Positions 28,174 to 43,976 of a stretch of 43,976 nucleotides of DNA are shown piece after piece. The stretch comes from a virus (Duplodnaviria; Caudoviricetes). The notes beneath the pieces are model-generated. The model searched no databases and was not told the DNA's origin. It worked only from the letters and a program-made list of their open reading frames with translations. Location of the stretch: the IMG/VR virus record IMGVR_UViG_3300025943_000016, positions 1 through 43,976 of that record. One strand, written 5' to 3'. The number at the start of each line of letters is the position of its first letter. The first letter of the stretch is position 1. A program made the translations under genes and the position numbers.

Positions 28174-28629
28174 TTATGATAAAGCGTAATAGAGTGCTTT
28201 GCGCCAACCTATACCCTTGTGTCCTGCAAGCCCTGTACCCGAAGCTGTTTTAGAGAATAACCACCACCGCTCCTCCGGTCTTAAAGCAAGCCATTTCTTG
28301 CATATAGTTTCGCATTGTTCCAGCTCCGCCTGCTCCGCAGCCCAGGCTAATACACAAAGCTCTTTACCTAAAAAAGGATCAAGGTATATTTTCCCCACTG
28401 TCCATGCGCCTGCAGCCTGCTTGTTATCCCGCAGGCGCTTGTTAAAATCCCGCCTGGCATCATCCCTTATTTTTACCCATAGATGATAGGATAGTTCAAC
28501 CCGTTTGACCTCATTACCAGTGTACCCATAATCCTCATAAATGAGCACCTTTCTTTTCCTATCAAACGGGATAGAAACGTAAAATTTATGTAATCCTTGT
28601 GCTTTAGGCGCTCCATAATTATTATCCAT
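28174..28629 (-). CDS. DUF3780 family protein (anti-phage defence-associated family)
   Basis: Motifs 'H.FYV.IP', 'FN.RL', 'LGKELCVLAWAAE', 'W.AL.PEERWWLF', 'GWRKAL.YAL', which I recognise as DUF3780. Confidence 0.85.
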   Translation of the reverse strand: MDNNYGAPKAQGLHKFYVSIPFDRKRKVLIYEDYGYTGNEVKRVELSYHLWVKIRDDARRDFNKRLRDNKQAAGAWTVGKIYLDPFLGKELCVLAWAAEQAELEQCETICKKWLALRPEERWWLFSKTASGTGLAGHKGIGWRKALYYALS

Positions 28630-28649
28630 ATCAACCCTCCACTATAAAT

Positions 28650-28678
28650 AATATAATAGATAAACGTTAAATAGTCAA
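28650..28678 (-). promoter_or_regulatory. sigma70 promoter for the DUF3780 gene
   Basis: TTGACT-17 nt-TATATT, followed by a GGAGG SD. Confidence 0.7.
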
Positions 28679-28872
28679 GCAAAAAGAAAATTTCCACTTG
28701 TGCTATGTTATATTTTCTCATAGAGAAGTTGAAATTTGCCTTTCTCATAAATGCATTAACATAATAGGGTATATAACGTTAAACAATCAAGCAAATTGAA
28801 ATTTTCCGCTTCTCCCCTCCCTGTCACTACTGTCACTATCCCCGACATTACTTCCGCCTAACACACACAACC

Positions 28873-28903
28873 TTTTAATTCCTTATAGCATAAGGAATTA
28901 AAA
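28873..28903. repeat. Palindrome TTTTAATTCC-N11-GGAATTAAAA, copy 1
   Basis: 14-bp perfect arms with a 3-nt centre. Confidence 0.9.
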
Positions 28904-29210
28904 CCCCTATATAGGTGATCTAATGACGGTCATGAACACTATGCCAGCCAACTTAATTCTGGATAAGAAGTGTTAGGTGTTAGGTGGCTTAGCCACTATA
29001 CCTCTTCTCCTAAATAGTAATGATTCCTATTATCATTTATTTGTTAGGTGTTATGTTATCTTTTTGTATACTTTTATATTCTATAATTGCTATTATATGT
29101 ATTTTTTGTAAAATTTATTTCAGCTTAAATTCATAATTCATCTAATGACACCCATTCACCAACCGGGTGTCATGTCTGTCAAGTCTGTCATTAATATTTC
29201 TAAAAAGTTA

Positions 29211-29241
29211 TTTTAATTCCATATACTACAAGGAATTAAAA
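29211..29241. repeat. Palindrome TTTTAATTCC-N11-GGAATTAAAA, copy 2
   Basis: Same 10-bp arms and 11-nt spacing as copy 1. Confidence 0.9.
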
Positions 29242-29385
29242 CCATGTTGATGTTAGGTTAAAGTAATGACAAACGTCATGACAACCCTGTCACTATTGAC
29301 ATTATCATAATAGGCAAATACCATGCCAAACGCGCTATTATTATAGTATATAATTAAAATATATTTATATAATATTAAATAATAC

Positions 29386-29414
29386 TTGCAATCCTTTTTA
29401 TAATGTTGTATATT
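29386..29414 (+). promoter_or_regulatory. Early sigma70 promoter P1
   Basis: TTGCAA-17 nt-TATATT with an AT-rich upstream region. Confidence 0.7.
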
Positions 29415-29420
29415 AGTAAA

Positions 29421-29452
29421 AGAGGGTAGCGCAAGGCGCAAATAAACCCTCT
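29421..29452 (+). ncRNA. Structured 5' leader motif, copy 1
   Basis: AGAGGGT-A-GCGC aag GCGC-AAATAA-ACCCTCT. Confidence 0.6.
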
Positions 29453-29469
29453 ACCGTTGGAGGTGAATT

Positions 29470-30084
29470 ATGATAGAAATATACAAAAACAAGTTTATTA
29501 CAGTGGAAACAAAAGGATATAGGGATAGATTTATTACAGCAAAAACAATATATAATATTGAATATAAGCTTAGCACAATGAGCTTTATTGCAAAAGTCTC
29601 TTTTGATAATAGAGAAAAAGCAGTGGGTTTTATGTATAACGCACTTAGTTTTCCCATTAACGAGGCCAATCATGAATTAGACACCCGCCCAGAAAGCACC
29701 TATATATCCGGGGATACTACAATAGGAACAACAAAAGAAATTTGTCTTTCCCTTAACGATGTTAAATCCATAAATGCATATCTATCTTTATTGCCTAAAG
29801 ATGAAGATATGGATCAATATAAGACTGAACTATCGAAGCATTTAGAACAACACCCCTTAACCGATGATATTAAACAGATCGTTGATTGGCAAATTGCTAA
29901 ATGTGATTTGGCTAATTTCCTTAAATATGGACATAAAAACGGACATCAGGCAGCCCTGCAGGCTGGTGTGGAAGTACCCAATCCGGATAAAAGCGCCGCA
30001 GATGCAATCAGAGATTTAATAAGACGATCTCTTTATTATTGTAAACCAACAATAAATGAGTTATTTATTGCTCCGCAAGTTTAA
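29470..30084 (+). CDS. Hypothetical early protein
   Basis: 204-aa ORF with GGAGGT SD; first gene after P1. Confidence 0.75.
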   Translation: MIEIYKNKFITVETKGYRDRFITAKTIYNIEYKLSTMSFIAKVSFDNREKAVGFMYNALSFPINEANHELDTRPESTYISGDTTIGTTKEICLSLNDVKSINAYLSLLPKDEDMDQYKTELSKHLEQHPLTDDIKQIVDWQIAKCDLANFLKYGHKNGHQAALQAGVEVPNPDKSAADAIRDLIRRSLYYCKPTINELFIAPQV

Positions 30085-30094
30085 GTAAATTACA

Positions 30095-30170
30095 CGTTGG
30101 AGCGGACTACGTAACCGCTCCAACGGTTCACCCTGCCGGTGTATAATGTTCTATCCGGCAGGGTTCTTTT
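30095..30170 (+). terminator. Two tandem hairpins, the second followed by a T-tract
   Basis: CGTTGGAGCGG/CCGCTCCAACG, then ACCCTGCCGG/CCGGCAGGGT followed by TCTTTT. Confidence 0.6.
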
Positions 30171-30183
30171 GAAAGGGGTTTAA

Positions 30184-30357
30184 ATGGATGTTGCTATATT
30201 TCTTTCTCTGATAGTCCTACCGGTAATAATTATAGCTTCTTTTTCCTTATATGGAATTGCACATAAGGGGATAAAGTGGAATGTTATAGGAGTATTTTTA
30301 TTTATTATAGCTATAATAATAGCCTTTATAGTATTAAAGCTATTTGGTGCTATTTGA
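30184..30357 (+). CDS. 57-aa two-TM membrane protein (not in the ORF track)
   Basis: MDVAIFLSLIVLPVIIIASFSLYGIAHKGIKWNVIGVFLFIIAIIIAFIVLKLFGAI, with AAAGGGG SD. Confidence 0.65.
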   Translation: MDVAIFLSLIVLPVIIIASFSLYGIAHKGIKWNVIGVFLFIIAIIIAFIVLKLFGAI

Positions 30358-30388
30358 TGCTGCAGGGTTCTTTTGAAAGGAGACTTAT

Positions 30389-30613
30389 TTGTTAGATAAT
30401 CAACCACACTTCTACAACACAACAGAAGGCTTATTAGTATTAGGTGAAAAGTTAGGTAATAAAATAATAAACATTAGAGCAACAGCAGAGCGCCTTAAAG
30501 ACGGTTCATTTAGTTGTATAGTTGGTGGATGTTATTATAAAAATGTTCCTTCTAAAGAATTAGCTGTTGATTATATAAGGAAGACTTTAAATATAGGAGA
30601 AATGTTATGGTAA
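30389..30613 (+). CDS. Hypothetical protein
   Basis: AAGGAG SD and TTG start; part of the operon. Confidence 0.55.
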   Translation: MLDNQPHFYNTTEGLLVLGEKLGNKIINIRATAERLKDGSFSCIVGGCYYKNVPSKELAVDYIRKTLNIGEMLW

Positions 30614-30825
30614 TTCTACCAACGGCAATTGATTTTAAACGTAGAAGAGTGGAATCTTCTGAAAATATTAAAAATTTTTTGAAAGAGCTTAATTCATTAG
30701 ATGCAAAAGAGAATAAACTTGAATTATGTATCCCTTTTACACCGGATGAGCTATCCTACATTAAAGCGCGTGGGTATAGTATAGCCTGGAGCAGCCCTTG
30801 TAAATGGTGGGTAGTGTCATTCTAA
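30607..30825 (+). CDS. Hypothetical protein
   Basis: AGGAG SD; translationally coupled. Confidence 0.6.
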   Translation: MVILPTAIDFKRRRVESSENIKNFLKELNSLDAKENKLELCIPFTPDELSYIKARGYSIAWSSPCKWWVVSF

Positions 30826-31475
30826 TGATAACTACTAAATACAATAATTTAGAAGAAAAACAGATTAATATATTTCATAATCTTTTTTCAATCTTTAATG
30901 AAAAGCTTTTTAATAATGAATTAAAGAAACCTATTATCTTAATTGATTATAATGTTAAAAAGGCTACGGGATACGCATCAAACAAACGTTTAATTGATAA
31001 TGAAACAAAACAAGAAAACTCAGTTCTCGGTCTTAATCCTGATTTTTTTGATGACAGATTAGAGTTGTTACAAACATTAGCACATGAAATGTGCCATTTA
31101 TGGGAGTATCAGCAACCGGGATATAACAGCAACAATAACAGACATACAAAGCTCTGGGCGGATAAAATGGAATCAATTGGCTTAATGCCGTCAAGCACAG
31201 GAAAAATTGGTGGAAAAAGAACAGGTTCAAAAGTGCTTGATTATATAATAGACTATAGCCCTTTTGCTATGGAAGCTCAAAGTATATTAGATAATAATCG
31301 GGAAATAGCCTATTTATTAGGTAAACTGATTAAAGCTAAAGAATCAAGGATAAATAAGACTTATAAATATGTCTGCCCTTTATGCAAGTGCACCCTACGG
31401 GGAAAATCCGGGCTTGATATTATTTGTGGAGTCTGTATGGAGACTATGGATGAAGTGGTTAAAACTAATGCGTAA
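30825..31475 (+). CDS. SprT-like zinc metallopeptidase
   Basis: 'TLAHEMCHLW...H...W..KME.IGL.PS.TG..GG..TG' plus C-terminal CxxC/CxxC. Confidence 0.85.
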   Translation: MITTKYNNLEEKQINIFHNLFSIFNEKLFNNELKKPIILIDYNVKKATGYASNKRLIDNETKQENSVLGLNPDFFDDRLELLQTLAHEMCHLWEYQQPGYNSNNNRHTKLWADKMESIGLMPSSTGKIGGKRTGSKVLDYIIDYSPFAMEAQSILDNNREIAYLLGKLIKAKESRINKTYKYVCPLCKCTLRGKSGLDIICGVCMETMDEVVKTNA

Positions 31476-31491
31476 ATAGCTCTCTTTTCTC

Positions 31492-31520
31492 TTGACTCTA
31501 TGCATTAAATAGACTATATT
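31492..31520 (+). promoter_or_regulatory. Early sigma70 promoter P2
   Basis: TTGACT-17 nt-TATATT. Confidence 0.8.
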
Positions 31521-31525
31521 GTATG

Positions 31526-31562
31526 TATAAGGTAAGCATTAAGTGCAAATAAATACCTTGTA
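31526..31562 (+). ncRNA. Structured 5' leader motif, copy 2
   Basis: TATAAGGTA-A-GCAT taa GTGC-AAATAAA-TACCTTGTA. Confidence 0.6.
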
Positions 31563-31576
31563 AAGAGGGGAAGGTA

Positions 31577-31762
31577 ATGATGAAGCGTATTGAAACGGAA
31601 AATGATAGAAATAATGCAAGATGCGGAGTAAAGGTGTGCTCTCCATCAAGTAAATGTTGGGGGTGCCCTATAGCGGATGAGATAGAAAAAGAAAACGCTT
31701 TAACCGATGAAGCGGAATTTCAAAACTTTATAGCTGAGGAGTTTCCGCAAGATTTTGATTGA
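31577..31762 (+). CDS. Small hypothetical protein (Cys-rich, acidic tail)
   Basis: SD present; first gene after P2. Confidence 0.6.
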   Translation: MMKRIETENDRNNARCGVKVCSPSSKCWGCPIADEIEKENALTDEAEFQNFIAEEFPQDFD

Positions 31763-31766
31763 CTTA

Positions 31767-31904
31767 ATGGGTGATTATCATGATGACATCTGCCCTATCT
31801 GTGGGAAACAGATAGAAGAGGTGGGTGATAGATATACTGAGTTAGGTTCTATTATGTGTAAACTTTGTCAAAATGCATTAGAGTTAATAGAAGAAAATGA
31901 TTAA
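31767..31904 (+). CDS. 45-aa zinc-finger-like protein (not in the ORF track)
   Basis: MGDYHDDICPICGKQ...MCKLCQN, with two CxxC motifs. Confidence 0.45.
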   Translation: MGDYHDDICPICGKQIEEVGDRYTELGSIMCKLCQNALELIEEND

Positions 31905-31932
31905 ACATTTTAATAATAATAAAGGAGAAATT

Positions 31933-32283
31933 ATGGCTATTGAAAACACAAGCAACCACCCCGGGTTTATACCCGCATTTGGAGGAGATTCCTCTGTGAT
32001 TGAATCACAGGAAAGAGCTGGTCAGCAAGAGTTAGTAAACTCTTCACAGTTACCAAAAAGAGGGATTGAAGAGGCTTGTAAAGAGATAACAGTAATAGGG
32101 GATTCAAAGGAAGATGCTTTATTTGTTGATGTTAAACTACCTAAAGGATGGAAAATTATTGAGGACAATCCGCCTTATTGGTCTGCCTTAATTGATGAAA
32201 AGGAGAAAGTAAGAGCAAAAATATTTTATAAAGCTGCCTTTTATGATAGGAGAGCATTTATAAAGTTTATGCTTATATATTAA
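31933..32283 (+). CDS. Phage hypothetical protein
   Basis: AAAGGAG SD; 'LP.GW...IFYKAAFYDR' motif. Confidence 0.7.
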   Translation: MAIENTSNHPGFIPAFGGDSSVIESQERAGQQELVNSSQLPKRGIEEACKEITVIGDSKEDALFVDVKLPKGWKIIEDNPPYWSALIDEKEKVRAKIFYKAAFYDRRAFIKFMLIY

Positions 32284-32301
32284 AATACTTATCATTTATG
32301 C

Positions 32302-32330
32302 TTGACTCTTAATGTTAAATACCTTATATT
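32302..32330 (+). promoter_or_regulatory. Early sigma70 promoter P3
   Basis: TTGACT-17 nt-TATATT; shares downstream TATGTATAAGGT with P2. Confidence 0.8.
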
Positions 32331-32337
32331 ATATGTA

Positions 32338-32376
32338 TAAGGTTAATGAACGAAGAGTTCATAAATAAAAACCTTA
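32338..32376 (+). ncRNA. Structured 5' leader motif, copy 3
   Basis: TAAGGTT-A-ATGAAC gaaga GTTCAT-AAATAAA-AACCTTA. Confidence 0.6.
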
Positions 32377-32388
32377 AAGGAGCACAGA

Positions 32389-32523
32389 ATGGTACAAATA
32401 ACAATCTATGACAAAGAAAACAGAATAATTGACACAATAAAAACAACTGCTGCGGAATTAAAACTTACAGTTAACTTAATAATGTCCTGGTATTTTAAAG
32501 GAGAACAGAATGGTACATTATAA
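32389..32523 (+). CDS. 44-aa hypothetical protein (not in the ORF track)
   Basis: AAAGGAG SD; MVQITIYDKENRIID resembles ITVYGKDGEVID of the next ORF. Confidence 0.5.
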   Translation: MVQITIYDKENRIIDTIKTTAAELKLTVNLIMSWYFKGEQNGTL

Positions 32524-32746
32524 AAGCAGAGTAACAGAAACAAACGGGAACGCAGAAAACGGAATCCGTGGATCAAGAATCACTGTTTATGGAAAAGACG
32601 GGGAAGTAATTGACCGTTTTTCCATACCGGTAAGAGGTGCAAGATATTATTGCGCTAAATACCCTAATGGTGTGTATGGCAAACGTTGCACCGAAGCGGT
32701 TAATAAAATGAAAGCACAGCTTGAGAAGGTAGAACAAAATAGCTAA
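32510..32746 (+). CDS. Hypothetical protein
   Basis: AAAGGAG SD; 78 aa. Confidence 0.65.
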   Translation: MVHYKSRVTETNGNAENGIRGSRITVYGKDGEVIDRFSIPVRGARYYCAKYPNGVYGKRCTEAVNKMKAQLEKVEQNS

Positions 32747-32788
32747 TTGTTCTCCTTTCTCCTTTAATCATGCCCAGGGAAACCTGGG

Positions 32789-32840
32789 CTTGTAATGTAG
32801 CCGATGCCGGTCACAAGCCCGGATAAATTCAGAGTGAAAG
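32789..32840 (+). ncRNA. Twister self-cleaving ribozyme, type P1
   Basis: UAA-UGUA-GC-CGAU-GCCGG-UCACAAGC-CCGG-AUAAA-UUCA-GA-GUG matches the twister layout, including the CAC/GUG and GC/GC pseudoknots. Confidence 0.85.
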
Positions 32841-32849
32841 GGGTTTAAT

Positions 32850-33005
32850 ATGTATAACGTTTATGACCATATCAACAAATATGCGGAGGATAATGAACTC
32901 CACCGTCAAACTATGATTGATGATGCCAGGAAAAACTTTCCGGAAATTTCGTATAAAGAAATTTCTGATATAGTCGATGTTGTTATAGAAAATTCTTGTG
33001 AATGA
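32850..33005 (+). CDS. 51-aa acidic hypothetical protein (not in the ORF track)
   Basis: MYNVYDHINKYAEDNELHRQ...; its AAAGGGG SD overlaps the twister 3' end. Confidence 0.6.
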   Translation: MYNVYDHINKYAEDNELHRQTMIDDARKNFPEISYKEISDIVDVVIENSCE

Positions 33006-33414
33006 TATATATGCTTGCCGACCTTTAACAAGGCGCATAGGAAGAAACGAGGCAAGGGCTTTTATGCTAAACTACAATAAAGGGGATATGTTAATAAATG
33101 AATTAGAGGAAATTATCATAATAAGGGATGTTTCTGTTTATGGTGTTTACTATCAATCTTTTGGTGATGATCAGACGCATTTTTTGATATTTTCAGCACT
33201 GGAAGGCTATAATTTTATTGAAAAAGAATTGGCGGTTAAAAAGCTAAAGATAAAGCTGTCTAAAAAAACAGTCAATGATTGTCTTTGCCTTGCTGCTGCT
33301 TTTGTAAGAATTGTTGATATGGCCGCAGAGGATAGGGCAGTTTGTGCTGTTAATTTAGCGGATGGTGTGTCTACCGTAAATAATTTAATCAGCTGGTTTA
33401 AAACAGAGGAGTAA
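32998..33414 (+). CDS. Hypothetical protein
   Basis: Coupled ORF in the early operon. Confidence 0.6.
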   Translation: MNDIYACRPLTRRIGRNEARAFMLNYNKGDMLINELEEIIIIRDVSVYGVYYQSFGDDQTHFLIFSALEGYNFIEKELAVKKLKIKLSKKTVNDCLCLAAAFVRIVDMAAEDRAVCAVNLADGVSTVNNLISWFKTEE

Positions 33415-33416
33415 TC

Positions 33417-33626
33417 ATGGACAAAGTCTTAATAACGGTAGAAGCGCTGAAAGAGATTGAAATATTTCTTTCAGCGCTTGAAAGGACAAAGACAGAGTTG
33501 CAGAAATTCACAGCTAAAGAGGGGAATGGGCGCTTTGTCCATAAATTAAATGGAATAAGTGCAAAATTATTTATGGGGATCAATGCCATTCGCTCATGGA
33601 TAAAGATAGGAACAAAGGGGGAATAA
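33417..33626 (+). CDS. Hypothetical protein
   Basis: GAGGAG SD. Confidence 0.6.
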   Translation: MDKVLITVEALKEIEIFLSALERTKTELQKFTAKEGNGRFVHKLNGISAKLFMGINAIRSWIKIGTKGE

Positions 33627-33627
33627 T

Positions 33628-33861
33628 ATGGATAAGTTAGATGTTCTTAAAAAAGAGTTCGGTGGCACAATAACGGAAATAGATAATCAGAGACAGTACC
33701 AATTAACAGACGGAAAAAATCTGCTGCTTGTTAGTTTTGTGCATGAATGTCTTAAAGTTATTTATAGGGATAAATCCGGAGATGAAGAAATGCACTTATT
33801 TAAACATTTTTTGAGTGTAGAGGGCTTTATCAAATTAAAAGGCTTTAAAGGAGTAATTTAA
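33628..33861 (+). CDS. Hypothetical protein, similar to the N-terminus of 33864-34463
   Basis: 'LKKEFGG...QYQL' versus 'LKADFGG...QYRL'. Confidence 0.6.
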   Translation: MDKLDVLKKEFGGTITEIDNQRQYQLTDGKNLLLVSFVHECLKVIYRDKSGDEEMHLFKHFLSVEGFIKLKGFKGVI

Positions 33862-33863
33862 TC

Positions 33864-34463
33864 ATGGATAATATTTTTTATGAGCTTAAAGCAGATTTCG
33901 GTGGTGATGTCTTTGTTTATGGGGACTATTCTCAATATAGGTTAAAAACTGATGAAATGTTAATCACTGTGGATATAGCTATTGCAAGAAACCCACAAAC
34001 AGACATTATCGGTGATATGTTTAAGGTTGTTTGTAATAGTTTTTGCGGTTTATATCATGAAACATGTATACTACAAAAATTATCCTCTGTTAAAGATTGT
34101 CTTAAAAGACATATTGAAAAAGTTTTTTCTTTAAGCTATAATAAACAAGCTTTAATTGATGTTCTGTTAGAATCTACTAAAGATATTAAAAAAGAGCTTA
34201 AAGGATGTCTAACAAATAACAAAAGTAAAAAGTTAAATGGTATTGATACGAATCTTTTTACCTTACATAAAAATGAAAAAGTTACTCTGGTTAAATCTGA
34301 AAAGTTTGTAGTGGCTTGTCTTTATGATTTTAATGATACTGGTCACCCCATATGGGCTTTAGAAGAACATGATAACTATGATAGTGCTTTAGAATCATAT
34401 AACAAACAACATAACTGCTATCATGCTATAAGGCTTTTTAAGGTAATGAAAGAAGGAGAATAG
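33864..34463 (+). CDS. Hypothetical protein
   Basis: AAGGAG SD; 199 aa. Confidence 0.65.
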   Translation: MDNIFYELKADFGGDVFVYGDYSQYRLKTDEMLITVDIAIARNPQTDIIGDMFKVVCNSFCGLYHETCILQKLSSVKDCLKRHIEKVFSLSYNKQALIDVLLESTKDIKKELKGCLTNNKSKKLNGIDTNLFTLHKNEKVTLVKSEKFVVACLYDFNDTGHPIWALEEHDNYDSALESYNKQHNCYHAIRLFKVMKEGE

Positions 34464-34466
34464 ACT

Positions 34467-35126
34467 ATGCAATTTATAGAAGGAAACGAAAAAATTGTTC
34501 AGATACTAAAAACACTTTTGCTTGATGCGGAAAGTGAATGGAGTAAGTATGAAGGTACTAACAAAGAAGCTCTTAAGCTATTTTATATAGTGTTAGGGAT
34601 TAAAGGTGTAATAATGTGTTTACAAAGCCTTACTGACTGGATACTTTTAAGTTATAATGATGAGCTTATATTAGAAAATAAGAATATTATTAAATTGCTT
34701 AATGCACTTTTGCTTGATGCGGAAAGCGAATGTATTAAATATTGTAGGGATAAGCAAGATAGCGCGGTTAACAAAGAGGCTTTTAAGCTGGGATATATAC
34801 AATCTGGTATTAACACTCTAATAAACAGCATAGAGCGAAAAACTCAAGATAATATGCACAGTCTAATTAAAAAAGTAACAGGTGAAGACTACCAGGAAGA
34901 CTTTATAAATTACTTTCATAGCATTTATTGTATACCAGAATGCGGCTGTGAGTGTAACGAGCATTATATTGAAGGTGCTGACTTAAAAGATATTTTAGGT
35001 TGTTGTATCGTTAAACATAGTGAAAAAGAAGCTATTGATATAATCAACACTGTTATTGATAATGTTGATAAGGAGTATTATTGGGAGGGGGCTATAGGCT
35101 GGAAAAAGATTGAGTATTTAGGTTAA
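34467..35126 (+). CDS. Hypothetical protein with an internal duplication
   Basis: 'LLLDAESE..KY...NKEA.KL.YI' occurs twice. Confidence 0.7.
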   Translation: MQFIEGNEKIVQILKTLLLDAESEWSKYEGTNKEALKLFYIVLGIKGVIMCLQSLTDWILLSYNDELILENKNIIKLLNALLLDAESECIKYCRDKQDSAVNKEAFKLGYIQSGINTLINSIERKTQDNMHSLIKKVTGEDYQEDFINYFHSIYCIPECGCECNEHYIEGADLKDILGCCIVKHSEKEAIDIINTVIDNVDKEYYWEGAIGWKKIEYLG

Positions 35127-35130
35127 TAGC

Positions 35131-35394
35131 ATGGATGACAAAATATTTAAAGAGCTTCTGGAAATATTAGAGGAAAACTCTGAAACACATATCATATATA
35201 AAGAAAAGAACTCATTAGGCAAAGAAGTATACTATCGCTTTTTACAAAACAGACAAAATATTATGGCTACTATTATAACCACAAATACTTTAGATAAAGA
35301 AAAAACCTTTAACTTTATAAAATATGAATCAAGAACAGTAGTTAGAATATCCGCTTTGAAGTGGGCTTTTAATATAGAAGAAAAGGAGCTTTAA
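35131..35394 (+). CDS. Hypothetical protein
   Basis: Tightly packed operon ORF. Confidence 0.55.
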   Translation: MDDKIFKELLEILEENSETHIIYKEKNSLGKEVYYRFLQNRQNIMATIITTNTLDKEKTFNFIKYESRTVVRISALKWAFNIEEKEL

Positions 35395-35395
35395 C

Positions 35396-35593
35396 ATGGA
35401 TGATATAACAGCAAATGAATTAAAGAAACTTTTGGAAGATGCGGATAATGCATATACAGCTTATAAAGGTTATGAAGTGATTGGTGATCCATATGAAGAT
35501 GATAATTCTCCTTGCAAGTTTAAATATAGCTATGTTAAATCTGGCATAGAGCATATATTAAAAAATCATTTTGATAAAACAGAGGGGCGGTAG
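35396..35593 (+). CDS. Hypothetical protein
   Basis: AAGGAG SD. Confidence 0.6.
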   Translation: MDDITANELKKLLEDADNAYTAYKGYEVIGDPYEDDNSPCKFKYSYVKSGIEHILKNHFDKTEGR

Positions 35594-35777
35594 TATGTAT
35601 GTTGTTAGTATAGACAAATATCCACCAATAAAGATGTCCTTTATTGAAGCGCGGGAGGTTCTTTTATTAAGAGGATACAACAATAAGAAATTTACACCTA
35701 ACTACTTATCATCATTAAATAAGTTAATTTTTAATGGTGTAACTATTAACATTATTAAAGGGAAAAAATATGTTTGA
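35571..35777 (+). CDS. Hypothetical protein (start probably the internal ATG)
   Basis: Operon ORF. Confidence 0.5.
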   Translation: MIKQRGGSMYVVSIDKYPPIKMSFIEAREVLLLRGYNNKKFTPNYLSSLNKLIFNGVTINIIKGKKYV

Positions 35778-36024
35778 CTATATAAGAGAATTTGTAGGAG
35801 AGGAAAGGAAGGGTATAATATCTAAACTTGTAACAGATATAGAGACACTTTATGAATTACATAAAGATATGAGTCTTTTATATGGTGTTTATTTAGGCGA
35901 ATTAAAAGTGCTTACCGGGAATGTCATTGATTTTAATAGAGCTTTGTCAAATGTGCTGAATCCCGCTATGTTTGAAGTATTTGGTGAAGCATTTCTTAAA
36001 ATAAAGATAGGTAATATAAAATAA
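35770..36024 (+). CDS. Paralog family member 1 of 3
   Basis: 'YGVYLGE...LNPAMFEVFGE.FLKI.I'. Confidence 0.7.
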   Translation: MFDYIREFVGEERKGIISKLVTDIETLYELHKDMSLLYGVYLGELKVLTGNVIDFNRALSNVLNPAMFEVFGEAFLKIKIGNIK

Positions 36025-36037
36025 AAGGAAGTGTAAA

Positions 36038-36313
36038 ATGTCCGATTATATAAAGGAATTTATAACAAAAGTAAACGATAAGAAAAATGAAGATATTATT
36101 TTTAATAAACTTGTTAAAGAAATAAGGAAGCTTAATAAGGTGTTAAATAATATGACTTTAGTCTATGGTGTTTATTTAGGTGAAGCAAGAGTAACGGCGT
36201 TAAATAAATATATGTTTAGTGATATTATTGATAATGTAGTAAACCCCGCTTTTTATATAGTATTCAGTGAAAGCTTTTTGGATATATGTATTGGTGCAAT
36301 TAAAGAGAGGTGA
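36038..36313 (+). CDS. Paralog family member 2 of 3
   Basis: 'YGVYLGE...VNPAFYIVFSESFLDI'. Confidence 0.7.
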   Translation: MSDYIKEFITKVNDKKNEDIIFNKLVKEIRKLNKVLNNMTLVYGVYLGEARVTALNKYMFSDIIDNVVNPAFYIVFSESFLDICIGAIKER

Positions 36314-36317
36314 TAGT

Positions 36318-36572
36318 ATGTATGAATTTTTAGAAACATATTTTTTAAATAATGGGGGTAAGGAACAAGCTATGACTATTCTTAAAGAAAAAATAAGCTC
36401 TTTATATAAAGAAAATAACAATATAGCAATTGTTTATGGATTTATTATGGGATTAACCAGAGCGCGTATAGTCTATGACGGGAACTATTTAACGTTCATT
36501 AAAGATTTTTTAAATCCTGCTATGTTTGAAGTGTTTGGTGAAGAGTTTTTAAAGATAAGAATAGAGGGGTAA
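36318..36572 (+). CDS. Paralog family member 3 of 3
   Basis: 'YGFIMG...LNPAMFEVFGEEFLKIRI'; GAGGTG SD before ATG 36318. Confidence 0.7.
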   Translation: MYEFLETYFLNNGGKEQAMTILKEKISSLYKENNNIAIVYGFIMGLTRARIVYDGNYLTFIKDFLNPAMFEVFGEEFLKIRIEG

Positions 36573-36574
36573 GT

Positions 36575-36823
36575 ATGGAAAAAATAATAAACGATCAAAG
36601 GGAAAAAGATATAAGAAAAGTGTGCAAAGCGCTGTTGTACTTTCATTTTGTATGTGTTACTCCGGAGCAGGATGAGTGGGTACATTGCAGGTATTGCAAA
36701 AGTAGCGGAGTAATGGCAAAGAATTTCAGATTTCTCCATAGAGGGGAGCAGCGAGCAGCAGCAAAAAGAATTAAGCATGATATATACTGCCCCGTACTTA
36801 TTGCAAAAGATTTACTAACATAG
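36575..36823 (+). CDS. Hypothetical protein, possibly zinc-binding
   Basis: 'CRYC...H...CP' motif. Confidence 0.55.
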   Translation: MEKIINDQREKDIRKVCKALLYFHFVCVTPEQDEWVHCRYCKSSGVMAKNFRFLHRGEQRAAAKRIKHDIYCPVLIAKDLLT

Positions 36824-36830
36824 AGATATA

Positions 36831-37169
36831 ATGGAAAAGATAAATGAAAAATTAGACATAATAAAGCAGGCTTTAGCAAAGGTTAGATACTTTAGTAATG
36901 ATTATGGAATATCCTTTTGTGGTGTAGCTGTAGTTAGTGAAAAAATAAAGGCCGCGGAAAATGCTATTGTCTTTCTTGAATCATTACCACATAACAATAT
37001 ATTGATAATAAAAGAACACATAAAAACAATAAAAGAAGCTTTAAACGCTATTATGTTTAGAGTTAATGACTATGGAATGAAAAAGTATAAATGGAAAGCA
37101 GTAAAAGATAAAATAACCGCTGCAGAGGGTGCTCTTGCTTCTCTTCCCGGATGTTATGCGAATGTGTAA
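36831..37169 (+). CDS. Hypothetical protein with an internal duplication
   Basis: 'IK.AL......NDYG.......V..KI.AAE.A' occurs twice. Confidence 0.65.
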   Translation: MEKINEKLDIIKQALAKVRYFSNDYGISFCGVAVVSEKIKAAENAIVFLESLPHNNILIIKEHIKTIKEALNAIMFRVNDYGMKKYKWKAVKDKITAAEGALASLPGCYANV

Positions 37170-37229
37170 GCAAAATTTATGCCAGCAAGCCGGGAACAAA
37201 GTTTATTTTGGTTTTTAATTTTAAATAAT

Positions 37230-37270
37230 AATTGTAAAATACTTTACAATTTATAATTATTGTGTATACT
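37230..37270 (+). promoter_or_regulatory. Promoter TTTACA-16 nt-TATACT with an inverted repeat over the -35 box
   Basis: AATTGTAAA-atac-TTTACAATT at 37230-37251; TATACT at 37265-37270 preceded by TGTG. Confidence 0.55.
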
Positions 37271-37276
37271 GTAAAT

Positions 37277-37774
37277 ATGGAGCATGTGAAATGGAAAAAG
37301 GAAAAAAGATGCATATACTGTCTATTTCCATTGATATTGTGTGTATTGTGTTTATTTGTATTGGTGCAACAAGTGCATTCACAGGATCAAACAAAGAACA
37401 AACTACAAAGCTTGAACAATCAATCGATGATAATTATAAACGAATTGAAACTAATTTATCAGGAATTGCAGAACAAATTGACGTTATCCAATCAACAACT
37501 AACAAACTACAAAATATTATTAAAGAATTACAGCGACAAACTACAGAGCTTGAATCAGGCTTTGACGATATACAAAAATTCTATCGGGATATTGGAACAG
37601 GACTACAAACAACTATTGACAAATTACAACAGCTTGAAAAGCTTAATAGAGAAACTGGAAAAGAAATTGAAAAACTATGATAAAGAAAAAATTATCACAT
37701 CAAGTATTAGCGCTATTATAGCGTTGATAGTTGGTTATATTGTAGGCTATTTAGTAAAACAGCTTACAATATAA
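37277..37774 (+). CDS. Signal/TM - coiled coil - C-terminal TM protein (spanin-like candidate, outer ORF)
   Basis: Hydrophobic N-terminus, long heptad repeat and C-terminal TM segment. Confidence 0.6.
   Translation: MEHVKWKKEKRCIYCLFPLILCVLCLFVLVQQVHSQDQTKNKLQSLNNQSMIIINELKLIYQELQNKLTLSNQQLTNYKILLKNYSDKLQSLNQALTIYKNSIGILEQDYKQLLTNYNSLKSLIEKLEKKLKNYDKEKIITSSISAIIALIVGYIVGYLVKQLTI
37291..37680 (+). CDS. N-terminal TM plus coiled-coil protein nested out of frame (spanin-like candidate, inner ORF)
   Basis: GGAG SD 8 nt upstream; TM segment then heptads; fully inside 37277-37774. Confidence 0.6.
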   Translation: MEKGKKMHILSISIDIVCIVFICIGATSAFTGSNKEQTTKLEQSIDDNYKRIETNLSGIAEQIDVIQSTTNKLQNIIKELQRQTTELESGFDDIQKFYRDIGTGLQTTIDKLQQLEKLNRETGKEIEKL

Positions 37775-37900
37775 ACTATAAAAAAGGAATATAATCATGA
37801 GTTTATTATTCTTGACATTATTTTTAGGATTATTTATTGATTACTTTGTGTGATTAGGTGCAGGCGCTGCCTGCCCTTATTCCCTTTAAAGGAGCTTATA

Positions 37901-38104
37901 ATGAGTGATACGGAAATACAGAGCAAAAAACAACTTGCTCTTTTAACTAATGAAATGATTGATAATGTTATTTCAACCTCGGATGAAGATATACTGAAAG
38001 AGGTTAAAGAGGACTATGGCAGCTCTGATTATGAAGCTAACAAAATGCGTGAAATAATAGCAAAGATGAAAATATTCGCAGCTATTGCGAATAAAAGGAT
38101 TTAG
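37901..38104 (+). CDS. Hypothetical protein
   Basis: AAGGAG SD before ATG 37901. Confidence 0.55.
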   Translation: MSDTEIQSKKQLALLTNEMIDNVISTSDEDILKEVKEDYGSSDYEANKMREIIAKMKIFAAIANKRI

Positions 38105-38321
38105 CATGGATGAACTATTTAATGTAAAGAATTTAAAGCAAATTAAATATGAACACGGTGGCAGCAGAATATATCTTGAATCTAATCATAAAAGAATTTT
38201 GCTATGTGATACCTTTAGCTACTTTGATACTTTTAGTAATTCAACAGAGGATAACAATAATCAGCGTGAGGAAATAAGGGAAGTCATATTTAATGCTATT
38301 AAAGAATATTTAGGGAAGTAA
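38085..38321 (+). CDS. Hypothetical protein
   Basis: Operon ORF. Confidence 0.55.
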   Translation: MRIKGFSMDELFNVKNLKQIKYEHGGSRIYLESNHKRILLCDTFSYFDTFSNSTEDNNNQREEIREVIFNAIKEYLGK

Positions 38322-38330
38322 AGGTAAATA

Positions 38331-38882
38331 ATGCAAACAATAAGAGAAATAGCGCAGAATGTTGTGAGAATGGAAGATGTCCAGCCCGGTTACCCTAATT
38401 GGCAAAGAATACAGGAATTAAAGAAAAAAAACATAAAACCCGCTTCCGGAATGATGAAAGGTGTTACATGGTGTAACAGGTTTGTTGATAGAGTTGCAAC
38501 TCTTGCAGGATATGACACATACCCTATGCTTGATGATAAGTATCATCATATAGGCTACACAAACGCAAATACTTGTTATAATCAATTATGTAAGGCGGTA
38601 GAAAATGGAACAATCCCGGTGGATGTTACTGCTGCGGTAGCACAAAGTTTAGCTAATATGAATATATTAGTTATAATGGCAGCACCTGGTAGATATCACG
38701 GTCATGTTGCTATTGTAATTAATGATAGAGTACCATATGATGAAAAGTTAGGTGTAAAGATCATACAGGCCGGTGGGCTTAATGGGGAGTTCTATGCAAA
38801 TAAAATATTTATTGCACCTTTTATTTATCCGGAAAGAATAAGATATTTCTTATTGAATAGGATAAAGAGCCTAAAAGAATGA
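38331..38882 (+). CDS. Putative endolysin, CHAP/NlpC-like Cys-His peptidase
   Basis: 'TWCNRFV' (catalytic Cys), 'GHVAIV' (catalytic His), 'IQAG'. Confidence 0.65.
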   Translation: MQTIREIAQNVVRMEDVQPGYPNWQRIQELKKKNIKPASGMMKGVTWCNRFVDRVATLAGYDTYPMLDDKYHHIGYTNANTCYNQLCKAVENGTIPVDVTAAVAQSLANMNILVIMAAPGRYHGHVAIVINDRVPYDEKLGVKIIQAGGLNGEFYANKIFIAPFIYPERIRYFLLNRIKSLKE

Positions 38883-38991
38883 CTTATTACGAATTACGCA
38901 ATCATTTTACAACTTATCATTTAGGCTATATAACAAAGAAAGGGCTTGTTATTATAATAAATAAATGGCAAGAGGAAGGAGCTAAAATAAA

Positions 38992-39528
38992 ATGACTAAA
39001 AATATAATGATTGACCTTGAGACTATGGGAACTAATTCATTCACACCTATCATTTCAATAGGCGCTGTATATTTCGATGAATATGGTATTGGTGAAAAGT
39101 TTTATACTAAAGTCTCATTAGACTCTTGCTTAAATTGCGGTATGAAAATTGATGCTGACTCTGTTATATGGTGGCTGCAGCAATCCGATGAAGCAAGAAA
39201 AGAGTTTAAATATAATTCTCAAGATAGGTGCATTCAAGATGCTTTAGCTATGTTTAAAGATTTTTATAAAGAGGATTCTTATGTCTGGGGTAATGGTGCG
39301 GATTTTGATATTGTAATATTGGCTAATGCATATAAAAGAGTTAATCTTCCTGTTCCCTGGAAATTTTATCATGTTTGTTGTTTTAGAACGATTAGAACGC
39401 TTTTTCCGGATATAGAGGCACAAGATTGTTCCGATTTGATTGCACATAACGCTTTACATGATGCTATAAATCAAGCAGCTTATGCTATTGAAGTTTTAAG
39501 GCTTTTAAAAAGAGTAGGTAATGAATGA
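38992..39528 (+). CDS. DEDDh 3'-5' exonuclease (RNase AS / exonuclease VIII-like)
   Basis: 'MIDLETMG', 'SIGAV.F', 'WW..Q', 'WGNGA.FD', 'HNAL.DA..QA'. Confidence 0.9.
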   Translation: MTKNIMIDLETMGTNSFTPIISIGAVYFDEYGIGEKFYTKVSLDSCLNCGMKIDADSVIWWLQQSDEARKEFKYNSQDRCIQDALAMFKDFYKEDSYVWGNGADFDIVILANAYKRVNLPVPWKFYHVCCFRTIRTLFPDIEAQDCSDLIAHNALHDAINQAAYAIEVLRLLKRVGNE

Positions 39529-40190
39529 GTGTTAGAATAAGCAATTCTTTGATATCTGCGGTTGATTGGTATTTAACAGCACCAAACACAGCACATAATA
39601 AAAAAGAGGGTGAAACCTGGAAATCAGATGCTTTAAACCAATTAAAGTCACTTATATTTAAGATGCCATTTATTGAATCGGAAGAGATGAAACATGGCCT
39701 TGTATTTGAAGAATTCCTTTATAAATGCGCTTTAAATAATAAACGCGGAAAAACAGAGCTTTTTAATAAAGTGCTTAATAATATAATAGGTGCACAGTAT
39801 CAAAAGTGGATGAAGCAATTACGGTTTGGAGTTACTTATGATATGAAAGGTTATAATATTGTAATGTCGGGAAAGATAGACGTTTTAAAAGAAGATAAAA
39901 TCATAGACATTAAAACAACTAACAGTTTTAATAAAGATAAATATACAAATAGCTGGCAGCATATAATTTATTGCATAGGTACTGGTCTGTTAAACTTTGA
40001 ATATCATGTGATTACATGGGGTAAGTACCCTACAATAAAGAGTTATGACATAGTGCCTTTTAATTGTAATAAGGATGACTTATACTATATTTATAAGCCT
40101 ATGTTGGAAAAGAAAATTGAAGAATGTTTAGCTGTTATTGACCAGTTAGGCTATCTAAAAGAATATTTATCCGGATTCTATTGTATTTAA
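39525..40190 (+). CDS. PD-(D/E)XK exonuclease (Cas4/RecB-like)
   Basis: 'G..FE...SGKID....IIDIKT...Q...Y'. Confidence 0.75.
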   Translation: MSVRISNSLISAVDWYLTAPNTAHNKKEGETWKSDALNQLKSLIFKMPFIESEEMKHGLVFEEFLYKCALNNKRGKTELFNKVLNNIIGAQYQKWMKQLRFGVTYDMKGYNIVMSGKIDVLKEDKIIDIKTTNSFNKDKYTNSWQHIIYCIGTGLLNFEYHVITWGKYPTIKSYDIVPFNCNKDDLYYIYKPMLEKKIEECLAVIDQLGYLKEYLSGFYCI

Positions 40191-40201
40191 AAGGGGTTGC
40201 A

Positions 40202-40531
40202 ATGGCAAATAAACAAGAGCGTATTTTCAGGGGACATAAATTTTTTACTGAAATAATTCATAATGAGGATGATAATAAGGATTATGAGTGCATGACAGTA
40301 GCGGATTTTGCAAAGGCAACAGGAAAACACGTTTCACAAGTACACTTATACATGAGAAAATTTCCTAATATTACACCTTTAAAAGTAATAAGAATTATAA
40401 ATAAGCCTTTTATACCTGTTAGTGAGCTGTGTGACTTTGTATTTACTACTAACAGCATAATGACTTATCGCTATAACGCGGCAGGGGAAAAAGTTTTTAC
40501 AGATAAAGGAATTGAAAAAATTGTTGAATAA
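40202..40531 (+). CDS. Putative HTH DNA-binding protein
   Basis: 'MTVADFAKATGKHVSQVHLY', an excisionase/MerR-like HTH pattern. Confidence 0.5.
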   Translation: MANKQERIFRGHKFFTEIIHNEDDNKDYECMTVADFAKATGKHVSQVHLYMRKFPNITPLKVIRIINKPFIPVSELCDFVFTTNSIMTYRYNAAGEKVFTDKGIEKIVE

Positions 40532-42131
40532 AATAGTTCCTTTACCCCGACAATATCAATATGATGCCTTTAATTATTTACAGTTAAAAAGATCTGCTGC
40601 TTTAGCTATGGAGCAGGGATTAGGTAAAACAAAAGTTTGTTTAATGTATGCGGAATATCTATACAATTTAGGTGTAACGGATAGGATTCTTGTTATATGT
40701 CCTAATAGTTTAAAGTATCAGTGGGTAGAGGATGAACCAAATACTCACCTGATAAATGATTTTAAAGGTATGTTCTGGGACAACTTCGTGACTAAAAAGA
40801 GAAAAAAGGAGTTTGATTGTTTCCTGTTGTATAAAGGCTTAAAGATATTTAGCGTTAACTACGAAGCATTTAGCAGTAATAGAGTTGATAAATATATCAT
40901 TCAATATTTAAAAGATAAGGAAGCGCTTATAGTATGCGATGAAAGCACAGAGATTAAAAATCCAAAGGCTTTAAGAACAATAAAAATATTAAGTAGATTC
41001 ATAAAAAGAAAATATAAAGTAATTTTATCCGGTACTTTATTAAATAATAGTCCTTTTGACCTATGGCCTCAATATGAATTTCTATATCCTAACTTTTGGG
41101 GTATGGATTATTCTATGTTTATATATCATCATGCTATGATGATCAAAAAAACTCACCCGGTAACTAATGCAGTGAAAAATGCTGTAATGACTGAATTTGA
41201 TTTTAATATAATAAAGAGTAGGCTTAATAAGATTATAAAAGATAAAGGAAGATTAACAGAGAAAGACTTTGAATATTTATCAGATATTCTATTTGTTAGG
41301 GAAAAAGATTTAATATCTATCCATGCTATGGGTAAGTTTACGCCATATAAAAACCTAACAGAGCTGCGTAATAAGATGTCAAAGGTTACGTTTTACTGTA
41401 AAAAAGAAGGTAACCTTGAACTACCGGAAAAGATTTATAATAAGCTGGAATGTGAATTAAACGCAGAGCAGAAACGACTAATAAAAGAGCTTAAAAGTGA
41501 CTTAATGACTCAATATGAAGATAAGACACTTACTTTAAAGAGTGTTATATGTTTGTTGTTAAGACAGCAAATGATAACTGGTGGATTATTCCCTTATGAA
41601 GATATTATCTTTGATTCCGATGGATACCCTATTGATAGCATAAAGGGTACAAACTATATTGATAATGTGGAGAAGTTTAATCTGTTTGAGGAATATATCG
41701 CCAGCGTAGGTGATGGTGATACGGTTATTGTATGGGCTATCTTTAAGTATGAGCTTTTGAAGTTGCATGAAATACTTTTAGATAATGGTAAAAGTGCTTA
41801 TCTTTATTATGGTGATACTCCGCATAATGAAAGACAAGAAATAATTGAAAACTTTAGACAGGGTAAAGCGCAGTATCTTGTAATAAATCCTGCTGTTGGT
41901 AAGTTTGGCCTTAATCTTCAAATTGCTAATCGTCAATTATTTTATAGTAACAGCTGGAAAGCAGATAACAGATTACAGGCGGAAGACCGTTCTCATAGGT
42001 TAGGACAAAAAAGAGCGGTTATATACACTGATGTTATTTGTCGTAACTCTGTTGATGAAAAGATTTTAAAAGCTCTAAAAAATAAAACAGATTTAATAAA
42101 TTATTTAAGAAGTAATCCGAAGGAGTTTTAA
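40512..42131 (+). CDS. SNF2-family helicase
   Basis: 'MEQGLGKT', 'CDES..IKNP', 'LSGT', 'GLNLQ', 'QAEDRSHRLGQ'. Confidence 0.93.
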   Translation: MKKLLNKIVPLPRQYQYDAFNYLQLKRSAALAMEQGLGKTKVCLMYAEYLYNLGVTDRILVICPNSLKYQWVEDEPNTHLINDFKGMFWDNFVTKKRKKEFDCFLLYKGLKIFSVNYEAFSSNRVDKYIIQYLKDKEALIVCDESTEIKNPKALRTIKILSRFIKRKYKVILSGTLLNNSPFDLWPQYEFLYPNFWGMDYSMFIYHHAMMIKKTHPVTNAVKNAVMTEFDFNIIKSRLNKIIKDKGRLTEKDFEYLSDILFVREKDLISIHAMGKFTPYKNLTELRNKMSKVTFYCKKEGNLELPEKIYNKLECELNAEQKRLIKELKSDLMTQYEDKTLTLKSVICLLLRQQMITGGLFPYEDIIFDSDGYPIDSIKGTNYIDNVEKFNLFEEYIASVGDGDTVIVWAIFKYELLKLHEILLDNGKSAYLYYGDTPHNERQEIIENFRQGKAQYLVINPAVGKFGLNLQIANRQLFYSNSWKADNRLQAEDRSHRLGQKRAVIYTDVICRNSVDEKILKALKNKTDLINYLRSNPKEF

Positions 42132-42665
42132 ATGAGCAATATATTTGATAAGTATACTAAAGATCAAACTATTGAAAATAAAGATTTACAAGATTTACAG
42201 TTTTTACTTAATAGGTTAAAAGACTGTGAACATAAGCTAAAAGTGCATGAGGAAAATGGAAAGTTTTTACAGAATGACCTTGAGCATATAAAAAGGAAAG
42301 CTATCCCGGAATTGTTTAACAAGATTGGTTTACAAAAAATAAACCTAACAACAGGGCAGCAGATTGAGGTAAAGAATGTTTTATATACGTCTATTGCTAA
42401 AGAAAAGGTCAAACAGTTATATAAAGAGCTTATATCTTTATACGGAATTGAATGTGAAGATTTGTTTAAAACGGAGCTTGTAATAAATGACGCTCCGGCA
42501 TTCGCTAAACAGCTGTTTATTGATAGTAAGATTCCCTACGATGAAGAAAAGACAATTCACTGGAAAACGTTAAACGCTTTTTGTAAAAAGCTTTTAGAGC
42601 AAGGTAAAAAAATACCAGACAGTGTTACGGTGTTTCAATATAAAGAAGCGGAGATAAAAGAATAA
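42132..42665 (+). CDS. Phage replication-module protein (coiled coil, 'IHWKTL.AF')
   Basis: Position between the SNF2 helicase and the SSB-like gene. Confidence 0.55.
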   Translation: MSNIFDKYTKDQTIENKDLQDLQFLLNRLKDCEHKLKVHEENGKFLQNDLEHIKRKAIPELFNKIGLQKINLTTGQQIEVKNVLYTSIAKEKVKQLYKELISLYGIECEDLFKTELVINDAPAFAKQLFIDSKIPYDEEKTIHWKTLNAFCKKLLEQGKKIPDSVTVFQYKEAEIKE

Positions 42666-42675
42666 AGGGGAGTAT

Positions 42676-42927
42676 ATGGTATTAAGATTTGAATTAACAG
42701 ATAATGATTTAAGGGAAATGGTTTATAAGCGCATAATTCATCAATTCGGTTTACCGGATGAATGCTTTAAAAAAGATGAAATTTTATTTATTTTGTCTAA
42801 TGAGGCAGGGGAATCTTTCAGCACAATAAGCGCTGTTGTTAGGTGCTCATTAGATAAAGATAAAGATAAAGATAAAGGTAAGAATAATAATCTTATGAAA
42901 ATACTTACAAAAGATGACTCTGAATAA
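42676..42927 (+). CDS. Hypothetical protein
   Basis: AAGGGGAG SD. Confidence 0.55.
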   Translation: MVLRFELTDNDLREMVYKRIIHQFGLPDECFKKDEILFILSNEAGESFSTISAVVRCSLDKDKDKDKGKNNNLMKILTKDDSE

Positions 42928-42974
42928 TATTAGAGTATAAATATAAATATTAAGATAAGGAGTTTAAAAACAGT

Positions 42975-43733: not shown

Positions 43734-43771
43734 AATTGTTGTTTTAATTATTGTTTATTTTCTTTTATTAC

Positions 43772-43791
43772 GCGCGCGATTAATCGCGCGC
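43772..43791. repeat. Perfect 20-bp GC-rich palindrome (terminator or protein-binding site)
   Basis: GCGCGCGATTAATCGCGCGC in AT-rich intergenic DNA. Confidence 0.8.
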
Positions 43792-43849
43792 TATTTATAA
43801 CTAATTAAGGGCAGCTATGACACTTAATGATGACACTATCAATATGTTT

Positions 43850-43976
43850 ATGACTTTGTTTGATGGTAATAAAGATTTTTACGGGGAGTATATAGCAGGT
43901 GAAAAGAATACAGAAGGAAAAGAAAAGGGAGCTTGTTCTACTATAAAACAACCGGTGACCTTTGAACTATATAAAG
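43850..43976. repeat. Terminal overlap identical to 1-127
   Basis: Direct comparison. Confidence 0.95.

Follow-up and report, generated by a model that had tools for sequence, protein, structure and literature searches.

Does the short stretch between two small early genes of this phage encode a self-cleaving RNA, and what would cleavage do to the gene whose Shine-Dalgarno sequence (SD) it overlaps? The window, meaning the whole stretch of DNA that was analysed, is an entire virus record of 43,976 bp (34% GC), and the public sequence sets that hold it are DNA runs labelled wetland metagenome. Its minus strand carries the terminase, portal, head protease, capsid and tape-measure genes. The rightward arm begins with small ORFs of no assigned function and continues with exonuclease, helicase, primase and DNA polymerase genes. 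The best cultured matches of the terminase are only 27–28.5% identical, and blastn against cultured phages returned two weak partial matches. The locus lies within the rightward early arm, about 460 nt past a sigma-70-like site, and comprises the following features:

32302–32330, plus strand: sigma-70-like promoter "P3" (TTGACT-17-TATATT), a near-copy of the site at 31492–31520 (repeat family D6)
32338–32376, plus strand: copy of a 5' leader motif (outer stem, inner hairpin, AAAUAAA bulge), after promoter P3
32389–32523, plus strand: 44-aa ORF, on the predicted 5' cleavage product
32510–32746, plus strand: 78-aa ORFan, directly upstream of the ribozyme
32723–32761, plus strand: predicted 14-bp hairpin with the stop codon of the 78-aa ORF (32744–32746) in its loop
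32752–32765, plus strand: two tandem copies of CUCCUUU, complementary to SDs of this phage, a possible anti-SD 5' of the cut (from the sequence)
32772–32789, plus strand: P0/L0 hairpin of 7 bp with a GAAA loop, extendable to 32769–32792 (folding and shuffles)
32789–32840, plus strand: type-P1 twister ribozyme without a P3 arm (Rfam alignment and core comparison)
32793–32794, plus strand: predicted scissile bond, U/A (alignment to RF03160)
32837–32843, plus strand: SD AAAGGGG, overlapping the nominal 3' strand of P1, 6 nt before the ATG
32850–33005, plus strand: 51-aa ORF, first gene of the predicted 3' product
32850–37169, plus strand: 14 rightward ORFs in close succession, which may all lie on the 3' product if co-transcribed

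The transcript from promoter P3 would start near 32337, and the next promoter-like site beyond the 14-ORF run is at 37243–37270. The figure of about 14 downstream genes given in the original prediction agrees with the fourteen rightward ORFs that run up to 37169. The 44-aa ORF matched no PHROG or Pfam family, and the 51-aa ORF had no family match. The 44-aa and 78-aa ORFs have nearly identical strings from ribosome-binding site (RBS) to start (32374–32391 and 32495–32512) and encode a similar short peptide (6/13 identical), which suggests tandem duplication.

Identity and structure of the ribozyme

The twister class goes back to Roth et al. 2014 (summary in PMC5408937 and PMC11662667). The original prediction had read a type-P1 twister from the letters, with a hairpin before it and GGGG and ATG 32850 after it, and had proposed a covariance-model search as a check. 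All of these elements are present at the positions given. The search with RF03160 (twister-P1) matched 32789–32840 on the plus strand over the full model (1–68 of 68) at 49.6 bits, with E-values of 4.6e-10 in a 601-nt search and 3.3e-8 in the whole window, though below the gathering score. At the gathering threshold, Rfam gave no match in the whole window, the cut-off of RF03160 being 67.2 bits. The same cut-off was missed, at 47–59 bits, by 11 of 12 other natural type-P1 copies picked for calibration, most of them P3-less; the remaining one scored 68.1. The sub-threshold score is due to the absence here of the model's P3 arm rather than to non-membership. Up to an E-value of 1, the only other Rfam match in the whole window was a chance-level sRNA (E 0.29). 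Matches to RsaE and STnc230 (E 3.4–4.8) were dismissed as chance level.

Aligned to the model, the core has P2 at 32796–32799/32828–32831, with three of four pairs and one U.U (U32798.U32829), the single mismatch that had been foreseen. P4 is perfect (32807–32810/32819–32822), and both pseudoknots are fully paired: PK1 at 32800–32801/32817–32818 (GC) and PK2 at 32812–32814/32834–32836 (CAC with GUG). A C-GAU-G stub replaces the model's P3 arm. A32794, A32795, G32832, A32833 and L4 agree with the invariant columns, and the alignment places the predicted cut between U32793 and A32794, the same bond as first proposed. A32794 would be the general acid and G32832 the general base, with residue roles transferred from PMC5408937. 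Taken together, the full-length match, the intact catalytic bases and the two pseudoknots identify the locus, at the level of sequence, as a type-P1 twister and one more member of a known ribozyme class.

Besides the mismatch in P2, one other pair is non-standard, G32792.A32837 at the top of P1. Position 32829 is spanned by contigs of three sequencing runs (X1, X2 and X4) that show no alternative letter, so the U.U mismatch is not an assembly error; X1 may itself be the source of the record. P1 had been called weak, which is right but understated: it has at most three pairs with the G.A on top, its strand duplex is worth −0.8 kcal/mol, and its pair probability is 0.00–0.01 even with competitors masked. 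The topology is still of the P1 type. The predicted absence of P1 arises because the P0 hairpin takes C32789 and can extend over U32791/G32792, competing for the 5' strand of P1. Folding without pseudoknots also yielded rival hairpins, both within the core and by pairing of L4 with the SD.

According to PMC5408937, P1 is dispensable for twister cleavage. In the survey of PMC11662667, about 94% of the natural twisters assayed were active, and imperfections in P1 and P2 did not lower cleavage. Cleavage activity is therefore likely here, perhaps partial.

The hairpin noted upstream, GCCCAGG-gaaa-CCUGGGC, is present and corresponds to P0/L0, an optional stem directly 5' of the twister that is found in about 10% of surveyed twisters (PMC11662667). 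It was more stable than 200/200 shuffles of the 60 nt upstream. In the same source, mean cleavage was 0.40 with P0 and 0.85 without any auxiliary stem. With an intrinsic terminator defined as a GC hairpin followed by at least five U in 8 nt, four terminator-like sites occur in 28500–39000; P0, which is not among them, was rejected as a terminator. P0 is a plain 7-bp tetraloop hairpin, there is no P3 or P5 insert, and no riboswitch family was matched around the ribozyme with E-values up to 10; the locus does not have the make-up of a ligand-dependent switch, glmS-like or aptazyme.

The closest known system is the type-P1 twister with P0/L0 (RF03160, clan CL00120). The full model match, P2, P4, the pseudoknots, the U/A cut and the catalytic A and G are common to both, P0 stands directly 5' of P1 here too, and the P3 arm is missing as it is in 25 other natural cores among the matches listed. 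What differs here is the U.U in P2, the G.A in P1, a P1 that is predicted absent and overlapped by the SD, and an upstream stop-codon hairpin with a tandem anti-SD.

Comparison with other natural twisters

Next, we compared the locus with other natural twisters. Pattern scans of viral contigs and GTDB genomes gave at least 436 core matches in at least 432 loci. At least 192 matches were parsed as type-P1 with full flanks and fell into 64 clusters including the window. One cluster (L355), a probable chance match, was excluded before counting, leaving 62 others (54 viral, 8 genomic).

Among the matches listed, 26 cores including the window lack P3. In these, 96.1% of the alignment cells were paired, and 10 of the 18 pairs had changes on both sides. 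Their covariation lay above that of 500/500 shuffles and of every slid control; this test is partly circular, as the parser demanded at least three P2 pairs and a paired PK2 middle. The middle pair of PK2 was A-U in 15 of these listed cores, C-G in 6, G-C in 4 and U-A in 1. In an earlier unfiltered list it was Watson-Crick in 34/36 of the matches listed.

The layout of the locus recurs as well. Among the matches listed, 51/62 others have a P0 of −7 kcal/mol or lower that ends within 9 nt of the cut, compared to 47% of shuffles, and the mean P0 energy is −12.6 kcal/mol in the 62 others versus −6.7 in shuffles. An SD with an ORF of at least 30 aa follows within 70 nt of the core in 51/62 of the listed others, compared to 15/62 on the opposite strand and 184/1240 shuffles. 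In those 51 loci, the median distance from core to start codon is 28 nt, versus 13 nt here; the SD starts inside the 3' strand of P1 in 8/51 and lies outside P1 in 43/51. A hairpin, a ribozyme and an SD in this order form a common layout in phage and prophage-like contigs, and the locus as it stands is one more example of it. A literature search that covered few subscription papers located no experimental test of a natural phage twister with an overlapping SD.

Other arrangements were seen in the same scan. Type-P3-like twisters, judged by eye, also lie just before SDs, and several phage contigs (L056, L037, L117, L098–L100) carry two to five of them, each before an SD and start codon (by eye). 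One contig (L224:351-721) has a type-P1 twister with an SD overlapping P1 and two same-strand tRNA genes nearby.

No homologous locus was found in which conservation of the stop-codon hairpin, the tract and the SD could be tested. Searches of viral contigs with the 78-aa and 51-aa proteins gave 13 and 18 pattern matches, none confirmed, and the 78-aa protein was its own sole match in a protein search. The nearest ribozyme sequence was also sought by a metagenome scan, which yielded only the window genome (L433) and one phage (L434, with the flanks of L027), whose record had no match to the window terminase. Four relatives (G001–G004) have terminase large subunits (TerL) 49–53% identical to that of the window phage. 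RF03160 was matched in 0/4 of their records, which are incomplete. In G001 (50% TerL identity), a tRNA was the only strong Rfam match. The head and tail genes of the window phage have counterparts in G001 and G002, but none of 36 tested rightward-gene proteins does.

Predicted consequences of cleavage for the early transcript

We consider it probable that the P3-less type-P1 twister with its P0 processes the phage early transcript constitutively, perhaps not to completion. Transcripts that start at promoter P3, or that read through from promoters further upstream, would carry the twister, whose core could fold once G32836 is transcribed and would cut at U32793/A32794 with no need for P1. The 5' piece would be about 457 nt long from promoter P3, contain the two small ORFs, and end with P0, four bases and a 2',3'-cyclic phosphate, giving it a terminator-like protected 3' end without termination. 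The 3' piece would begin with a 5'-OH, and the folded core would serve as its 56-nt leader, followed by up to 14 ORFs. It would be uncoupled from the upstream RNA, as with insulator ribozymes, and could be stabilised or degraded according to host nucleases. The overlap with the SD would then reflect tight packing, and SD access may be only modestly altered by cleavage. Two parts of the original prediction fare well in this model: the hairpin-ended upstream RNA is likely, P0 being a known stem enriched 5' of the other listed twisters, and so is a downstream mRNA as the 3' product, predicted to start 56 nt before the ATG. Against the processing reading stand the sub-cut-off score, the P2 mismatch, the G.A in P1, the lower cleavage linked to P0 and the competing folds, and a plain processing site leaves the stop-codon hairpin and the tandem anti-SD unexplained.

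Processing of this kind has been put forward for other ribozymes. The hammerheads of phages and prophages (Perreault et al. 2011, PMC3088659) are likewise self-cleaving RNAs at gene boundaries in early polycistronic units, and processing into gene-length mRNAs was proposed for them. Processing of phage polycistronic RNA by hammerheads was also shown in vitro (PMC3088659; PMC6765202), and ribozyme processing of such RNA is still a standing hypothesis (PMC6765202). In haloviruses HF1/HF2, the hammerhead is separated from the start codon that follows by 13 nt, and 5'-end mapping placed an end no more than 3 nt from the cut (PMC3088659). The present locus differs in ribozyme class, in having a single copy where the hammerheads form clusters, and in that its cut is predicted from sequence where a 5' end was mapped there. 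RiboJ (PMC6206723) and glmS (PMC6765202) give a new 5' end by leader cleavage, as proposed here. RiboJ raises mRNA about 2-fold, with stabilisation suggested (PMC6206723), and glmS cleavage leads to mRNA decay (PMC6765202). RiboJ is synthetic and glmS is cofactor-dependent, whereas no aptamer or cofactor site was seen here.

An alternative that we regard as unlikely is a translation-sensing gate on the SD, released by cleavage through the distal tract. On completing the 78-aa ORF, ribosomes would open up the stop-codon hairpin (32723–32761), and the freed CUCCUUU at 32759–32765 would pair with the SD (32837–32843), replacing P1 distally around P0 and the core. The cut would make this short helix intermolecular, so that it dissociates and the downstream gene is turned on. 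In the folding model, with the core held and the coding arm open, the SD is 96–97% paired across the cut; it becomes about 70% (70–71%) unpaired once the tract is masked or the RNA is cut, and the intermolecular tract-SD helix has a predicted Kd of about 0.2 mM. The stop-codon hairpin (−14.6 kcal/mol) ranks first in strength among 35 rightward gene ends, with a z of −3.14 and 2/200 shuffles equally good. Its 3' arm is the pyrimidine tract, and no other CTCCTTT occurs on the plus strand of 29400–43976 (14.6 kb). Pairing across the cut had p 0.02 (shuffle) and 0.044 (swap) in a post hoc test, the tract having been noticed first. Engineered twisters with the SD in P1 offer a precedent, activating about 5-fold (PMC5052635).

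The modelled gate is, however, a delicate one. Pairing across the cut gains only about 2.7 kcal/mol by an energy model that handles no pseudoknots and was applied to one genome. It falls to 0.45 when the stop-codon hairpin is allowed to form. With a ribosome opening the coding arm, predicted pairing is 0.98–0.99 if 14 nt past the stop are covered and 0 if 16 nt are covered. Longer folds are predicted to pair the tract with the coding arm or with upstream RBSs. Among the matches listed, anti-SD pairing across the cut was at chance level elsewhere (2/44 by swap, 3/44 by shuffle), and it was rejected as a general property of phage twisters (2/44 listed loci). No homologue showing covariation was found. 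A natural translation-coupled switch of this design, in which the stop hairpin is opened, the anti-SD shuts the SD and self-cleavage frees it, timing the 14-gene block, is likewise unlikely. A functional distal anti-SD would make the locus a natural equivalent of engineered ribozyme ON-switches. The locus is very compact: its stop and start codons are about 110 nt apart, and processing, stability and SD release could be separated by a few point mutants.

Two other twisters, in L251 and L206, have sequence 5' of P0 that complements the downstream SD, and only that in L251 reached p<0.05 in both controls. An antisense gene with the tract as its own SD was rejected, as inspection found no suitably spaced start codon.

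The twister may instead be decaying or largely inactive, so that the hairpin and the RBS matter and cleavage does not, a reading to which we give little credence. A single substitution separates the U.U from the perfect P2 seen in the nearest look-alike (L434/L027), and the U.U is the sole P2 mismatch in the 26 P3-less cores among the matches listed; the lower mean cleavage with P0 (PMC11662667) and the alternative folds point the same way. These observations have to be set against the survival of all invariant bases and both pseudoknots in a 34% GC genome and against the tolerance of P2 mismatches reported in PMC11662667. The relative with 50% TerL identity lacks a twister match, but it shares only head and tail genes, so this absence says little.

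The original prediction held that the SD is sequestered in canonical P1 and exposed by cleavage, which now appears very improbable. The SD does overlap the 3' strand of P1 physically, as in 8/51 other loci among the matches listed, and the engineered switch of Felletti et al. 2016 (PMC5052635) likewise places the SD in the 3' strand of P1 of a type-P1 twister in a 5' UTR. P1 is predicted absent here, its three pairs at most, G.A and −0.8 kcal/mol giving a probability of 0.00–0.01 in competition with P0; G32841–G32843 of the SD lie outside it, and in 43/51 listed loci the whole SD does. In the engineered twister, P1 has a designed full anti-SD and still reached only 5-fold activation with low expression, because the core stays folded before the SD (PMC5052635). 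At the present locus, canonical P1 is nearly absent and any anti-SD is 5' of P0.

Least credible, alongside the P1 model, is that cleavage chiefly makes the 5' RNA, whose 3' tail (tandem anti-SD and P0) would silence its own two RBSs or other SD-bearing mRNAs in the manner of an sRNA: the tract can pair with the RBSs of the 78-aa ORF (−16.1 kcal/mol) and a 128-aa ORF (−13.7), and its second copy is predicted to bind the 32376 or 32497 RBS when the 5' product is folded, but any anti-SD word fits all RBSs by construction, the tract is mostly tied up in the local stop hairpin, and no conservation was found.

The leader motif and the surrounding early arm

The original prediction joined the ribozyme to a leader motif in an RNA-based early-gene control system. 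The motif itself is real: three copies were found genome-wide (29421–29452, 31526–31562 and 32338–32376, with bulges at 29440, 31547 and 32363). Every copy is on the plus strand, immediately follows a promoter-like site whose last bases are TATATT, and precedes an SD. In shuffles there were 0.03 matches and never three. The stems vary in sequence yet stay paired, that is, they covary, and the AAAUAAA bulge is invariant. Rfam gave no convincing match to the motif, and no copy was found in G001 or G002. No link to the ribozyme emerged: only one of the three copies lies in the promoter P3 unit, no mechanistic tie was found, and nothing was seen to connect the two beyond their common transcript from promoter P3. 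PeSLs are cassettes of a promoter plus a stem-loop that functions as a terminator and is located within or ahead of the promoter (PMC2839356); the leader motif is only loosely PeSL-like, since its structure follows the promoter. It may be a protein-binding or stabilising element. If the translation-coupled switch were true, it and the three AAAUAAA-bulge leaders would make an RNA-level early-gene programme.

Several further features of the window were observed. After the first early gene, two strong tandem hairpins (30095–30186, z −4.15) precede a U-rich run and may be a terminator or an RNase III-type processing site. They are also followed, at about 30171–30183, by the RBS string that stands behind the twister in identical form, here without a twister, and the tail of the second hairpin with its RBS recurs at about 30362–30382. 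The divergent control region at 28600–29400, a candidate origin or operator region, contains a 90-nt imperfect inverted repeat (28846–28935/29179–29268), a repeated palindrome (28873–28905, 29211–29243) and short direct repeats. On its leftward side, at 28174–28629, is a strong DUF3780 match (E 2.3e-56), and a SprT-like protein is encoded at 30804–31475.

Further along the rightward arm, a 219-aa ORF has an internal repeat (34467–34824; families D3 and D4), and three small ORFs (35770–36572; families D1 and D2) are tandem paralogues. Near a possible lysis gene, two long same-strand ORFs with hydrophobic N-termini (37262–37774 and 37291–37680) overlap in different frames and may be a nested spanin-like pair.
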